This document shows positions 12,560 through 32,646 of a stretch of 64,000 nucleotides of DNA, piece by piece; the first letter of the stretch is position 1, and the number at the start of each line of letters is the position of its first letter. Source of the stretch: Phyllosticta citribraziliensis (Eukaryota); assembly GCF_038025025.1 (NCBI RefSeq), contig NW_027117344.1, positions 1,302,001 to 1,366,000 on the forward strand, in the 5' to 3' direction. The position numbers and the translations under genes were made by a program. The notes below the pieces were generated by a model, which was given only the letters and a program-made list of their open reading frames with translations, did no database searches and was not told where the DNA came from.

Positions 12560-14456
12560 ATGGACGCCAACGACCGAGACAGCATCGACTACCATGAGAT
12601 GAACGCCTTGCGCGTTGCCGTAGAAGGCTGTGTAAGTTTTGCTCAGATGCTATTCGTGTGGGACAAGGCTAACGCTTCTCGCCAGGGCCATGGCACCCTT
12701 CATTCCATTTACGCTTCAATCGCGCAGACTTGCAAGAAGAAAGGATGGCACGACGGTGTCGACCTTCTCATCATAGGCGGCGACTTTCAAGTATACATCT
12801 CGTCAAATTCTTCCAAACCCGTATCTCTGACCTCTTCAGGCAGTCCGCAACAGTCAAGACCTGAAATGCATGGCCGTCCCGCCCAAATACCGACATCTCG
12901 GAGACTTTCACGAATATTACTCGGGCAAACGCACAGCGCCCTACCTTACCATTTTCGTTGGCGGCAACCATGAAGCAAGCAACCACTGCTCGGAGCTTTT
13001 CTACGGCGGCTGGGCAGCACCAAACATATACTACATGGGAGCAGCCAACCTAGTTCGGCTAGGCCCCTTGCGGATAGCTGGTCTTTCTGGTATTTTCAAG
13101 CCATATGAGTACAGGAAGCCTCACTATGAGCGGCTGCCCTACCATGAGGACGAGGTCAAGAGCGTCTACCACGTCCGCGAATGGGACACCCGGAAGCTAT
13201 TGCAAATAAGAACACAGGTTGACATTGGGATAAGCCACGATTGGCCCAGGGGTGTTGAGTGGCTGGGAAACTACCAGTCACTTTTCGGTCAGAAGCCATA
13301 CTTCCGCGCCGACGCTGAATCTGGTCGGCTTGGAAGCGTTCCCGCAAAGCTCGTGATGGAGCGATTGCGGCCTTCGCATTGGTTCAGTGCTCATCTGCAC
13401 TGTAAATATGCAGCCACTGTCAATCATGACAAAGCTTCGCAGGTTGGCGAACAGGTCACTCAGCCAGCTGCGATCGAAGCACCACAGAAGAATGCCGACG
13501 AGATTGATCTAGATATGGACTTGGACGCAGAAGCTCCGACAGCACAGGACAACCCGAATTCAAAAGCTCAAGTGAATAGCACGGACGAAATTGAACTAGA
13601 AGTGGACGAAGACGACAACATTGCACAAGTCGAGTCCAAACCAGTAGCTCGGGGCAACAATGAGGAAGAAATTGAGCTGGACGTGGACGAAGATGCAGCT
13701 GGACACGGGAACACTCAGACAAGCACCACCAAGGACCCCAACGATGCAACAGGCATAGGTGCAGGTGCTGACGAAGTACCGGAGGAACTCAGAGCGCAAC
13801 TACCAGCATCATTTGCACGTCCCGAAGAACCAAGCAAACCAGTGCCTCTGCCCTTCCCCAACGCCATCCAAAACAAACAAACCAAATTCCTCGCACTTGA
13901 CAAGTGCCTCCCACGCCGCGACTTCCTTCAACTCGTCGAGATCCCACCCATTTCCACGACGGAATGCACCTTTGCGAGGCCGCTGCGCCTCTGCTACGAC
14001 AAGGAATGGCTGGCCATTACGCGCGCCTTCGCGCCTGATCTCGTCGTAGGCGACCGCAACCACCGCGTCCCCGCCGACAAGGGTGAAGCGCACTACCGCC
14101 CACTCATTGAGGAGCACGAGGCCTGGGTCGAGGAGCATATCGTACAGAAGGGCAAGATGGAGATTCCGACGCACTTTGAGTTGACAGCGGAGCCTGAGGC
14201 GCCGGGACTAGACACATCGGGTCTCCCGCTCGAGTACACGAATCCGCACACCAAGGAGTTTTGCGATATGCTCCAGATCCCGGTCCCGTTCGACTCGACG
14301 CTGGAAGAGAGGTTGGCAAGAAAGGAGAAGGGTGATGCGGAGCAGGGGCAATTTGACGGTGGTGGACGCGGAGGAGGACGCGGAGGCCATCACAGAGGTG
14401 GTCGTGGTAGGGGTAGGGGAAGAGGCAGAGGTAGAGGTAGAGGTGGCCGATGGTAG
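12560..14456 (+). CDS. DBR1: RNA lariat debranching enzyme (3 exons)
   Basis: RVAVEGC|GHGTL, GDFQ|AVR, GGNHEAS, SHDWP, HWFSAHLH and TKFLALDKCLPRRDFLQ motifs. Introns ~12632-12685 and 12791-12839. Confidence 0.96.
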
Positions 14457-14582
14457 CCAATGTGAAAATCAAGGGTCGTAAGTCATTGGCCTGCTAATCT
14501 TTCGTGCCAAGTGGTATCAAGATGAATCAGGCAAGTAGTTCACTATCAAGTCTCGTTTTACCACACGCCTCACTCTTGGATT

Positions 14583-14588
14583 TATATA
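14583..14588 (+). promoter_or_regulatory. TATA element upstream of the tRNA-like Pol III unit
   Basis: TATATA 31-36 nt upstream of the tRNA-like 5' end, followed by a CAACAAAA leader. Confidence 0.5.
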
Positions 14589-14618
14589 GCAGCAACCCCC
14601 ACAGCTTCTCCAACAAAA

Positions 14619-14833
14619 TCCATCGTGGTGCAGCGGTAGCCCGCCAGTCCAAACACCACGGCAGTCAGTGCCATCCTTGACCTGATGGACTAGGTCCTTG
14701 ATTGGCCCGCAATGTCCGGATCTGGGATGGGGGACCCCCTGGCTGTCTCCTGGTTCGGCAAGCCTGGACGGCTGTGATGGCTGTACAGTGTTACGAAAGA
14801 CTGGAGACCCGAGTTCGACTCTCGACGATGGAA
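14619..14833 (+). ncRNA. tRNA-like Pol III RNA with ~150-nt structured insert in place of the anticodon loop (atypical tRNA, tRNA-mimic or pseudo-tRNA)
   Basis: Acceptor stem TCCATCG/CGATGGA; A box TGGTGCAGCGG; anticodon stem CCAGT/ACTGG; B box/T-arm CGAG-TTCGACT-CTCG; discriminator A; T5 terminator. Confidence 0.75.
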
Positions 14834-14836
14834 CCC

Positions 14837-14841
14837 TTTTT
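14837..14841 (+). terminator. Pol III oligo-T terminator
   Basis: TTTTT starting 4 nt after the predicted discriminator base. Confidence 0.6.
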
Positions 14842-15003
14842 AAACAAGTGAGCATTGGCTCGGCCATCTCCTTTCTTTCCTCTTTTTGCTGATGTTGACC
14901 GTGAATTCTTGGCCGAGGTTCTGGATAAATACGAGCACAACCGACGCAGACGACACTAGTGTTTTCGAACGCGCTGTCAAATTATACTATCTATCTTCAA
15001 ATT

Positions 15004-16825
15004 CTAAGCACTAGCCTGCACCTCCCTGACCCTCTCCCTCTCCTCACCGCCCCCTTTGCCCTCCCTGGTCGTCGTCTGTTCAACTTCGACCTCACCCCTT
15101 GCCTTCGCCGCGCCCACCAGATCCGCGCCCCTCTCAACGTGATTGCTGCCGCCAAAGAGGACGTCAATCTCCTCGAGGGCGACCTTCTTGGTCTCGGGGA
15201 TGCAGAACCACGTAAAGACGGCCAGTAGCGCGTCGATGCCGGCAAACATGTAGAAGGCGTAGAAGCCGCAGTTGTCGAGGAACGTCGGGAAGAATTGCTG
15301 TACGATGGCGTTGGCCACGTTTTGCGTCTGCGATGCCATGCCCACGGCTTGCGCGCGCACGTTCATGCTGAAGACTTCGCTCGTCCAGATCCACACTGTG
15401 GCGCCCCATGAGGGCTTGTCTGTGGTGCGTGTTAGCTTGGAAAGTGAAGGGCACAGTGGGTGTCGAATGACGTGGCAGATTTTGGCACCGTGACTGGCTG
15501 CCTGGGTAAGGGGTTCGGACAGGACTTACAGAAAAAGGCAAAAAGGAACATGAGAAAGACGATGGCGACGCCGACACCATGGGTCTTGGTGCCGTCCGCA
15601 CCGGTTGGAGTCTGCGTTTCAACGCTGGCGACGATGATCATGCACAAAGACATGCCCAGCGCGCCGACAATGAGCAAAAACTTGCGGCCGAAGCGGTCGA
15701 CGGTCCAAGCAGCATTGAGAGTGAACAGAATACCAAAGGTGGCGTTGAGTGCGTTGATGAGGGCAATCTGCGAACTTCCCTTGCCAAACACCTTTTGGTA
15801 GACGAGGGTCGAGTACGAGTTGAGCGAGCCCTGACCTGTGATTTGCTGCCCGGCGTTGAGCACCAGTGCAAGAAGCAGCCGCTTGCGCACGCTGCGGTCG
15901 CGCCACAGCGCCGAGTAGCCGCTCGAAATGGCTTCACGCTCGAACTCGATGGCCTCGCGGATGGCGAGGATCTCGGTCTCAACGGCCTCGTCCGTGTCGC
16001 GGACTTTGCTCAGACTGGCACGGGCCTGCTCTACCTTGTCGCCATGTTGGATGTACCAGCGCGGAGTCTCGGGGATGAAGTACAGCTGCGCGATGATGAG
16101 CACCGGCATCAGCAACTGGAAGATGACGACCATGCGCCAGTCCCAGTCACCCAGCCGCTCGGAGTGCTCCTGGCACCCGTAGTTGACCCAGTAGGCGATG
16201 AAGGAGCCGACGCTGTAGAACATTTGCCAGAATGCCATGATGGTACCGCGGATCTCGGACGGGCAGAGCTCGCCAATGTAAATGGGGCCAGCCGCTGAGT
16301 GGGAGCTGCGTCAGAGAGGGTCTTGTTTGGAAACAGTCGCGCCATGGACTTACTCAATGCGAGACCTTGACCGAGACCAATGAGCACTCGGCCTCCAATA
16401 AAGGCTCCAATGTTTCCTTTGGGCGCAAACGCCTGGATGAAGGTCGCAACGACAACGAGGAAAGATCCGGCAGCCATGCCTACTCGGCGGCCGAAGTAAT
16501 CCGCCACAGGTCCGCCAAAGAAGAAGCCTCCCACGATGGCACCGACGGTGTAGGCCGTGTTGACAGCTCCTTGAGTTTGCGAGTTCTTGAAATCCGTTAG
16601 GGAGCGTTCATGAGCCGAGAGAGTCTGTACACACGGGGTGATCGAACCACTCCAACCAATTGTCAGAGCCGAGGACGGCGTTGAAGACGGAAGCGTCGTA
16701 GCCATAGAGCACCATGCATGATGCTGCGACGAGAGATATGTACCTTTCTCAGGGGTTAGTCATTTCCAGAGATTATTGTTAGAAACGCACCAGTTGTACG
16801 CTCTCTTTGCTGTCATAAGCCCCAT
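15004..16825 (-). CDS. MFS sugar porter (hexose/lactose/cellodextrin transporter-like), multi-exon
   Basis: YGYDASVFN, DYFGRR, PETPRW, QQITGQ, VDRFGRK and PETK motifs. Introns near 16744-16790, 16584-16634, 16294-16354 and 15420-15528. Confidence 0.92.
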
Positions 16826-30881: not shown

Positions 30882-31630
30882 CTGGCTGCCGTCAAAAGCA
30901 AAGCTCACCGCCCAGTGCCTTCCTGGCTCTTGCGCGGGTAGCAACATCGACCGCCTTGCGTGGCGCTGACAAGCTGAACTGAGCTGGTACATTGGGACAA
31001 TGCTGCACATAGAAAGCAAGAAGGAGCACGAGGGGGAGAAAAAGAGATGAGACTAGATTTCCAAGAAAAAGACGGGAAAGAGAAGCGCGTAGAACGGATG
31101 GGCGGAAGACTGGTCTCCTAGCTGAACTCTTTTACTTTCTCATTTTTCCTTCCACCACTCCTTTTCTCTCGTTCATGTACATACATGATCTTCGTTGAAC
31201 ATATACATCTGCTTTTGGGGCCCCTCACACATCTGCTCGAAGCCTGATGCTGCTGCGTGTTGTGCTTTTAGCTAACCAGCAGATCCTTCTCCTGCGAGAG
31301 TGACTGCAGAAACAGGATGCAGCAGCGGTGTCGTCAGACAGCGACCAAAGGCTTGGAAGCGGTGACAATAACAGCCGACTCGCCCGCCTCTCCAACAGTG
31401 TCAAGAAAAAAGAACATCGGGTGTGCAAAGACACAAGGAACTTTCATTCGAAGATACTCCGGGCACAGGCACTTCGCACGAAGCCAACACCACATGCCAT
31501 TGTCTTCCTTGCGCTACCGGGCGGACCGCCCCCTGGCCACCTCAGCGCTCCCCTCACCTGTGGACCCACCCAAACAAAAAACGCACCGCCCACCCGCCCA
31601 ATCAACGAGCCAAACAAAAAAAGGGCAAAA

Positions 31631-31748
31631 CGTACAACAGCCGGGATTCGCTGCTGGTCACCCACGCAACTACTAATCGGCCGCAAGGTAGCTTATCTAT
31701 GGAAGAGCGGACGGGGTTCCGAGTTTTCTACCTGCTATGATCGTACGT
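31631..31748 (-). rRNA. dispersed 5S rRNA gene
   Basis: Reverse complement ACGTACGATCATAG...CCCGTCCGCTC...TTAGTAGTTGCGTGGGTGACCAGCAGCGAATCCCGGCTGTTGTACG (118 nt) matches the Pezizomycotina 5S layout. TTTT follows the 3' end and TATAAA lies at -24 to -29. Confidence 0.95.
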
Positions 31749-32646
31749 GGAAAATTTAGTGCAAGTTTGCGTTTATAATCTGTGTCACTGCTTGGTGCGG
31801 GAACTTCGAGATTCTGGCGACTTGTGTCAAGTGGCCAATGCTTTGGTTTTGCGAGGAAGGAGAGCATTGGGTGTGTGAGATGTAGGTATACGACTTGGTG
31901 ATTCGCGACTGGGAATGCCTTGGTGACAACTGTTGCTGAAGTGCTTCAAGCCTTCGCGAATGGACCTGGACGTCAACCACTGCGTCGAGTTAACAGACAA
32001 GCTCATGTACCTCGGGCATGGATAGATTCCACCACCTTCATGTGTGCCAATGGACTTCAAGCTGCATGGCCGAAGCGACGAGAATGGGGGCGGTGTGAAT
32101 GACGAAGGTGACAAAGAAGATGAGGGTGGTGGTCAAGGCGAACCGGGACCAAGGCTGGGCCTTCATATTTGTTGGATGTCGAGGCCTTCGAGTCGCCGAG
32201 GTGGACGATGGATAAGCAAACAACTAAACACCGCTCGAGGAAGAAAGTATGTACAGAGGAAGAGAAAAGTACGTCATTCGTGTTGAATTACCCACACCAC
32301 ACCCATAAAACCTCCCTCATTCATCAGATCCACCCATCCAGCACTCCACCCGTCTGTACGGGTCTTGCAGATCCGCCATCGCTTCAACAAAGCAAAAGGC
32401 TTCAGTCTTAAGCCATTGCTTGCTCAGCCTTCCGTTTTGCATTGTCAGCTTTTCCAAGTCTCGCTCCCCACCGTGGCGACTCGAGTCGAGCGACAAGGAG
32501 ATCTTTTAACTCGATCATGGATAGCCAGGTTGGCAGTTGAAGCCCACAGCATCTCGGTTTTCAGCAAAGCCCGTCCGCTGATTAGTTCGTACATCAATCC
32601 TCTTGGTCTCGACAAACTGAAGTGAAAAGAGGTCAACAAGGAGGCC

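Follow-up and report, generated by a model that had tools for sequence, protein, structure and literature searches.

The locus described here raises the question of what a tRNA-shaped gene makes when about 150 nt stand where its anticodon loop should be. An earlier note on this DNA had proposed a stand-alone gene for a tRNA-shaped carrier that presents a separate structured RNA domain and does not decode. We characterized the element within a window of 64,000 nt, i.e. the whole stretch of DNA that was analysed, and compared it with related loci in public sequencing runs, with known tRNA gene types and with the literature. The element sits between two convergent genes, in an intergenic gap of ~550 nt. 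A lariat-debranching-enzyme gene precedes it on the same strand and ends at 14456 (DBR1 domain, E 1.2e-46); the opposite strand carries a sugar/MFS transporter gene, the last ORF of which ends near 15004. The tail of the debranching-enzyme ORF consists of Gly-Arg repeats, GGGRGGGRGG...RGRGRGRGRGRGGRW (14370-14453, + strand).

The cloverleaf can be read directly from the letters (Table 1). All seven acceptor pairs form between TCCATCG (14619-14625) and CGATGGA (14826-14832), and T8 and G9 follow directly on the 5' strand. The D arm is composed of GTGC, AGCGGTA and GCCC; it contains A14, G15, G18 and G19 and has a T:C mismatch at 11:24. The anticodon stem pairs CCAGT (14644-14648) with ACTGG (14800-14804), with C14649:G14799 as a possible sixth pair and 151 nt between the two stem strands. 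A variable loop of 4 nt, AGAC, leads to the T arm CCGAG / TTCGACT / CTCGA, which carries a C:A mismatch at 49:65, and A14833 is the discriminator. Apart from the single mismatch in each of the D and T stems, the conserved tRNA nucleotides U8, A14, G18-G19, G53-T54-T55-C56 and C61 are present.

Table 1. Features of the tRNA-like element, in positions of the window.
Feature	Position	Strand	Details
tRNA-like element	14619-14833	+	cloverleaf read from sequence
TATATA, candidate upstream Pol III promoter element	14583-14588	+	36 to 31 nt 5' of mature end
CAACAAAA leader, likely containing the transcription start	14611-14618	+	sequence reading
Cloverleaf 5' half	14619-14648	+	acceptor strand, U8, D arm, A box 14626-14636, anticodon-stem 5' strand
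5' junction CCAAACA	14649-14655	+	kept in other long-insert copies
Variable insert, intron-like spacer	14656-14794	+	fold z-scores, no alignment to other copies
3' junction GAAAG	14795-14799	+	kept in other copies; complement reads CUUUC
Cloverleaf 3' half	14800-14833	+	anticodon-stem 3' strand, AGAC, T arm, B box 14812-14822, acceptor strand, discriminator A
TTTTT, candidate Pol III terminator	14837-14841	+	starts 3 nt after discriminator

Signals of the Pol III type lie on both sides of the cloverleaf, in agreement with the earlier note. Besides the element, the window contains a single Pol III gene. This dispersed 5S rRNA gene at 31629-31748 (- strand, Rfam 84.5 bits) has TATAAA at -29 to -24 (31772-31777) and T runs just past its end (31600-31628). 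The TATATA found ~30 nt upstream of the element is placed as the Pol III genes of this organism seem to place their TATA, a likeness of position only. The motif CAACA(A/T) also occurs upstream of the 5'-half matches in other contigs, namely in three of the four loose ends listed before 14616 or 14618. The 3' junction together with its stem strand (14795-14807, GAAAGACTGGAGA) shows 85% complementarity with a pyrimidine-rich stretch that lies 60 nt downstream of it (14867-14879, TCTCCTTTCTTTC), which may be due to chance in purine- and pyrimidine-rich DNA.

When introns were allowed, ARAGORN scored the locus at 109.5, and nothing else in the 64 kb passed the default threshold. This score was not reached in any of 30 dinucleotide-shuffled copies of the window; the shuffled set gave four matches over threshold with a top score of 106.2. 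With its default settings, ARAGORN reported no tRNA anywhere in the 64-kb window. Searching Rfam gave no match to a known family at the locus at gathering scores, and relaxing the limit to E values of up to 10 returned chance-level matches only. The Rfam tRNA model (RF00005) gave no match at either limit, and an insert of 150 nt is expected to defeat this model. A scan of the window for B boxes gave chance-level matches only, and a scan for promoters and terminators of the bacterial type was uninformative. The cloverleaf is real, and neither it nor its signals are explained by chance: each element of the tRNA fold that the earlier note had described around the ~150 nt is found in the sequence.

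We then considered the insert itself, which had been described as a structured domain. Compared with shuffled sequences the RNAfold z-score was -0.80 for the whole element (14619-14833) and -0.52 for the anticodon arm with the insert (14644-14804), so that the stability of the insert is no better than that of shuffled sequence and the description as structured does not hold. The unconstrained minimum-energy fold of the element is not the cloverleaf (-82.4 versus -76.3 kcal/mol). Inside the insert a tandem duplication of 9 nt (14767-14784) suggests that it may have grown by slippage. A second copy of the insert is absent from the 64-kb window. Several candidates for the nature of the insert were tried and rejected. 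A nested tRNA or snoRNA would have to rely on loose C-box-like TGATGG and ACA motifs, with no Rfam match. For a spliceosomal-type intron we saw by eye no GT..AG pair with a branch site that would leave a 7-nt loop. A transposon with inverted ends and a duplicated AAA would have ends that pair imperfectly, and the loop rebuilt after its removal has 6 nt.

To compare the element with its relatives, contigs of four public runs were aligned to 14200-15200 at 80% likeness. These contigs show neither strand, ends nor splicing, and the RNA or DNA nature of the runs was guessed. One run (X5) did not cover the element. Run X3, from the same fungus (organism A, 8 records), reproduced 14588-15200 with 0 differences, and the insert is thus not an artefact of one assembly. 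In this run one contig starts at 14588 and another ends at 14530, and their depths differ. Six further records of X3 match the tRNA parts only. Record 3 matches 14618-14655 with 4 differences and then continues from 14804 onward, with a gap between the halves that we estimate arithmetically at ~130 letters at most. The 3' half is matched by five records with 1 to 3 differences, starting at 14794, 14798, 14801, 14801 and 14804. For the two earliest starts (records 4 and 5) no CCAGT occurs in the 30 letters shown upstream, indicating long inserts there too. Run X6, from organism C (5 records), contains two records with both halves (3-4 and 2-3 differences), between which 120 (record 13) and 110 letters (record 14) are found that are unalignable to the present insert at 80% likeness. 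One further 3' half in X6 starts at 14795. The gene is therefore not stand-alone, as had been claimed, since several related copies exist in contigs of the same fungus and of a relative.

The alignments of these copies break off at nearly the same positions. Matches to the 5' half in other contigs (records 3, 13 and 14) extend from 14618 or 14619 to 14655 or 14656 with 3 or 4 differences, the individual ends being 14655, 14655 and 14656. Matches to the 3' half have 1 to 4 differences, and those of records 4, 12 and 15 start at 14794 or 14795. The junction CCAAACA recurs in three other records from two species, and GAAAG recurs in three. Judged from these alignments, copies that keep the halves and the short junctions and do not keep the insert display what looks like the pattern of exons against an intron or spacer. 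Halves and junctions that are kept around inserts that are unlike each other argue against a carrier of one conserved RNA domain. Together with the lack of excess stability this takes away the main support for a new class of scaffold RNA as proposed in the earlier note.

At the syntenic locus the evidence is divided. In organism C the syntenic contig (X6 record 12) matches the 3' region of the Dbr1 gene up to 14473; the next 22 letters resemble the window to ~14523 by eye, and the contig then passes straight into 14795-14829. About 271 nt (~14524 to 14794), comprising promoter, 5' half and insert, are missing there. The gap has GAA at both edges and looks like a microhomology deletion, and the 5' half and the insert appear to be dispensable at this locus, as far as one contig can tell. 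Run X7 (organism D or a mixture, 60 records) does contain the syntenic locus with insert among the records listed, one record having 12 differences and 1 gap over 14610-14791 among the matches listed. Conservation at this position, which the earlier note had made a test of its proposal, is thus present in organism D and absent for the 5' half and insert in organism C. The contig of organism D has a longer T run (a T inserted after 14835, C14836>T and A14842>T). Six substitutions are among those listed for its insert: three fall at unpaired positions, two disrupt a predicted pair and one preserves such a pair, and no compensatory change is among the six. In some of the related 3' halves, the 30 letters shown beyond 14833 include no T run.

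Whether the element can decode depends on the loop that is left after removal of the insert. Enumeration from the sequence shows that all eight 7-nt loops obtainable by a single excision have C33, and readings in the register shifted by one base have A33. The only anticodons possible on the + strand of the 5' junction are AAA and AAC, both without U33. Across settings ARAGORN read AAA, AAC, GTG, CAA and AGA on the + strand, again none with U33: His(gtg) and Val(aac) were called each with a long extra arm, and Leu(caa) and Ser(aga) were called as well. Forms spliced in silico scored 109.3 as Phe(aaa) and 110.7 as Val(aac), the latter with exon 1 extending to 14655 and exon 2 starting at 14798. 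The conclusion of the earlier note that this is not a decoding tRNA is borne out to the extent that the present copy is no ordinary decoder, position 33 being C or A in every single-excision loop.

Two splice registers can be distinguished. According to established rules the intron of eukaryotic nuclear tRNA genes lies at 37/38, the cuts are set by a ruler mechanism, and an anticodon-intron pair is critical, as given in PMC10485636 and PMC10275265. The standard register, set by homology to tRNAs that share CCAGT/ACTGG-AGAC, has C37 and C32 facing G38 and no anticodon-intron pair. With the register shifted by one base, A14655 becomes the last base of exon 1, C14650 can pair with G14795 leaving the bulge A14796-A14798, and AACAC (14652-14656) pairs with GUGUU (14788-14792); no register other than this one places a purine at 37. 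A pre-tRNA-like fold with this pair, the 3-nt bulge and the helix costs +1.4 kcal/mol over the cloverleaf-constrained optimum. The boundaries of the shifted register coincide with the conservation boundaries of the other copies. Compared with the standard register, the anticodon-intron pair is displaced by one pair away from the body, and a ruler mechanism may not select it. The tRNA splicing endonuclease takes its measure from the body of the tRNA, and its cuts move when the anticodon arm contains insertions (PMC10485636), which makes the shifted register uncertain.

A further property of the element is its likeness to tRNA-Glu. In a comparison set that is small, biased and chosen by our own search pattern (31 ARAGORN-called tRNAs and the halves of the metagenome contig L033), the body was closest to the tRNA-Glu(CUC) of L033 with a score of 40 versus 31 for the next. 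The complement of the 3' junction reads C-U-U-U-C-G and so includes, opposite GAAAG, the CUUUC that is found in the anticodon loop of tRNA-Glu(UUC). When 14649-14799 was reverse-complemented in silico, ARAGORN called a tRNA-Glu(ttc) of 73 nt with a 144-nt intron at 37/38 and a score of 108.4, whose loop has C32, U33, UUC and G37. Allowing for the number of readings tried, we estimate the chance of obtaining U33, purine 37 and a Glu anticodon at roughly 0.002 to 0.02. A tRNA on the minus strand was considered and rejected: GG and TTC are absent from its loops, and what remains is a mirror image only. The mirror-image tRNA-Glu(UUC) loop is the main unexplained point of this locus, and it would need an explanation even if the copy is decaying.

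Relatives were also looked for more widely. A metagenome scan with the 3'-half pattern returned 38 loci, none of which is a fungal relative of the element, and scans of prokaryote and viral contigs gave 0 matches, as expected from collections without fungi. Some metagenome contigs carry unusual tRNA genes in their own right. L033, a GC-rich, alga-like contig, contains a circularly permuted tRNA-Glu(CUC) gene at 451-545, in which the tRNA 3' half (position 38 to discriminator A) is followed by 13 nt and then by the matching 5' half, which ends in the loop letters TTCTCA with TTTTT soon after. A leader-trailer helix closes the permuted cloverleaf into which the region 428-556 folds (z = -2.29). 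A permutation of this type may explain a joint in run X7 that 'goes back 218'. Contigs L010, L030 and L031 contain tandem tRNA-Asp(GTC) arrays with a period of 185-205 nt, some members of which have altered anticodons (atc, atg) or a 4-base call; these are arrays of working genes and decaying copies side by side.

The reading that we prefer, at a probability of roughly 0.45 and thus somewhat short of even odds, is that the element belongs to a small, diverged and lineage-specific family of long-insert tRNA-derived genes, as a member that is decaying or crippled. The family would belong to this ascomycete lineage and consist of Pol III genes with a Glu-type tRNA body. At the position of the anticodon loop its members would hold a fast-evolving, intron-like spacer of 110 to ~145 nt, bounded by C-CAAACA on the 5' side and GAAAG on the 3' side. 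TATA, A box and B box would recruit Pol III to make a transcript of ~225 nt that ends in the T run, and RNase P and RNase Z would probably trim its ends. With the C14650:G14795 pair and the bulge A14796-A14798 as its guide, the tRNA splicing endonuclease may cut on the 3' side of A14655 and on the 5' side of A14798, which would free an intron of ~142 nt and leave the loop CAAACAA. The insert would then be a spacer and not a functional domain. Since no excision gives U33 and the D and T stems each have a mismatch, the present copy is most likely crippled or decaying and not a working decoder. An exon end at a purine 37 and an anticodon-intron pair would fall just where the alignments of the other copies stop and start. 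Several observations count against this reading. The register with the anticodon-intron pair needs a sixth stem pair or two linker bases after the D stem, and on paper it yields AAC, a valine anticodon, on a body that seems nearest to tRNA-Glu among the few compared. That the halves are more conserved than the inserts speaks for selection acting on the copies, which is more in line with a functional family than with pseudogenes. Organism D has kept the T run, in a longer form, and the unconstrained minimum-energy fold is not the cloverleaf.

Some of these objections would be answered if the copies formed a functional family of tRNA-shaped Pol III RNAs in which the aberrant anticodon region, with or without the long arm, has a non-decoding role. 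Such an ascomycete multi-copy family with a Glu-like body, whose anticodon loop would be replaced for good by a junction without U33 that bears a hypervariable arm of 110-145 nt, we regard as unlikely. The recurrence of the U33-less CCAAACA and of GAAAG in the records named above, the stronger conservation of the halves, the intact Pol III signals with the T run kept in organism D and the complementarity between GAAAG and the tRNA-Glu(UUC) loop all fit with it, and the last of these hints at a role of GAAAG in binding or titrating tRNA-Glu(UUC) or its partners. A function is harder to reconcile with inserts that have neither a domain common to the copies nor excess structure, with the truncated syntenic copy of organism C, with the two stem mismatches of this copy and with related 3' halves that have no T run in the letters shown. 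The mirror-image loop would follow directly if a tRNA-Glu(UUC) gene with a long canonical intron had undergone inversion of its stem-bounded module, by which the stem stayed as it was, the loop became reverse-complemented and decoding was killed. The clean tRNA-Glu(ttc) call of the re-inverted module, the Glu-like body in the small set compared and the low estimate for a chance coincidence speak for this event, which we consider quite unlikely nonetheless: the junction has the same orientation in the other copies, such that a single recent accident does not fit and the inversion would have to be old or recurrent. Moreover, the re-inverted form has a G38 able to pair with C32, it has C opposite U in place of an anticodon-intron pair and no intron stretch complementary to the anticodon, and no opposite-strand match to the insert is found among the organism A matches listed. 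The family as a whole may nevertheless have originated via inversion of an anticodon-intron module.

The element could alternatively be a working decoding tRNA with an intron of record length, either of a Val type (AAC) that tolerates A33, or with paralogues that have U33 and a recent variant in this copy. The spliced form with its score of 110.7 as tRNA-Val(aac), A37, the discriminator A, the anticodon-intron pair and the bulge are what such a gene should have; one substitution at 14651 would be enough for a canonical loop, and the alignments of the paralogues probably allow about one mismatch at most in 14650-14655. We hold it to be very unlikely in view of the absent U33, a geometry that needs an extra base pair or linker base, a body that is Glu-like and not valine-like in the small set compared, the two stem mismatches and an intron that would exceed the eukaryotic maximum of 133 nt quoted in PMC10275265. 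Neither was a match to an ordinary intron-containing tRNA found. Dispersed copies, of which there are several, could also point to a tRNA-derived SINE or other mobile element, or to a single event in which foreign DNA entered a tRNA gene. From fungi, tRNA-related SINEs and tRNA-bearing TRIMs are described (PMC5063351 and PMC10886601). However, behind the insert the present element has a tRNA 3' half that completes a perfect acceptor stem, which is not how a SINE is built; the window shows no flanking direct repeat of at least 8 nt, no A-rich tail and no further insert copy, and inserts that are unlike between copies sharing one junction stand against independent insertions. With none of the SINE hallmarks found, a mobile or inserted origin appears highly improbable.

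tRNA genes that are circularly permuted or non-canonically interrupted are known from algae, namely from Cyanidioschyzon and prasinophytes. As the present element, they consist of rearranged nuclear halves that need unusual processing, and it is the halves of L033 that are nearest to the present body. Unlike permuted or split genes, the element has its halves in normal 5'-to-3' order on one strand, and on inspection of the junction no bulge-helix-bulge (two 3-nt bulges, 4 bp apart) was seen. tRNA-like domains are also known as scaffolds, in tmRNA, in the bacterial Y RNA YrlA and in mascRNA. The element shares with them a non-decoding tRNA-shaped fold that may be handled by tRNA-processing enzymes. 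Such RNAs either contain a non-tRNA domain that is conserved or are part of a defined host transcript, whereas the non-tRNA part of the present element differs between copies, has no excess structure and matches no Rfam family. Another example of a tRNA-like domain is the MEN-beta tRNA-like RNA (PMC10275265).

Nuclear tRNA genes with long introns are closer relatives. Eukaryotic tRNA introns lie between 37 and 38; those of yeast measure 14-60 nt, and elsewhere lengths of up to 133 nt are reached (PMC10275265). The 113-nt intron of a Drosophila tRNA-Tyr defeated older software (PMC8450103). The element resembles such genes in its cloverleaf exons around a variable insert in the anticodon loop, in its A and B boxes and its T-run terminator, and further in the possible anticodon-intron pair with a 3-nt bulge and in copies that keep the exons and not the insert. 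It differs from them in having no U33, in an anticodon that does not seem to match the Glu-like body, in the extra stem pair needed by the register with the anticodon-intron pair and in an insert of 142-151 nt that is larger than the quoted maximum. Fungal tRNA-derived repeats are known to give non-canonical cloverleaf predictions (PMC8450103). With tRNA pseudogenes and repeats of fungi such as AfuSINE2 of Aspergillus fumigatus and the Helenus TRIMs the element shares A and B boxes, diverged copies, a non-canonical cloverleaf or loop and an apparent mismatch between isotype and anticodon (PMC10886601 and PMC5063351). Helenus elements have tRNA-like LTRs, with fungal reports from Pucciniales and a few Agaricomycetes (PMC10886601). 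In contrast to these repeats, both halves of the present element pair perfectly across the insert, and target-site duplications, LTRs and a tail are missing. In open-access full text we found no description of a fungal tRNA-shaped gene with such a long anticodon-loop insert, and three short exon strings had no match there. A preprint on a zymocin-like toxin, consulted for its link to tRNA-Glu, makes no mention of tRNA-like genes.

For annotation the locus is an instructive case: default tRNA finders and Rfam miss it, and the intron-tolerant search gives five isotype calls depending on the setting. If the element is merely a decaying copy it is ordinary, yet the recurring conserved junction still needs explaining. 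If the family is real and expressed, it would extend the size range and the rules of eukaryotic tRNA introns, for which reviews quote 133 nt as the upper end, and the arms, if spliced out, would be the longest nuclear tRNA introns described. Alternatively, a real and expressed family would provide a fungal example of tRNA genes turned into non-decoding RNAs.
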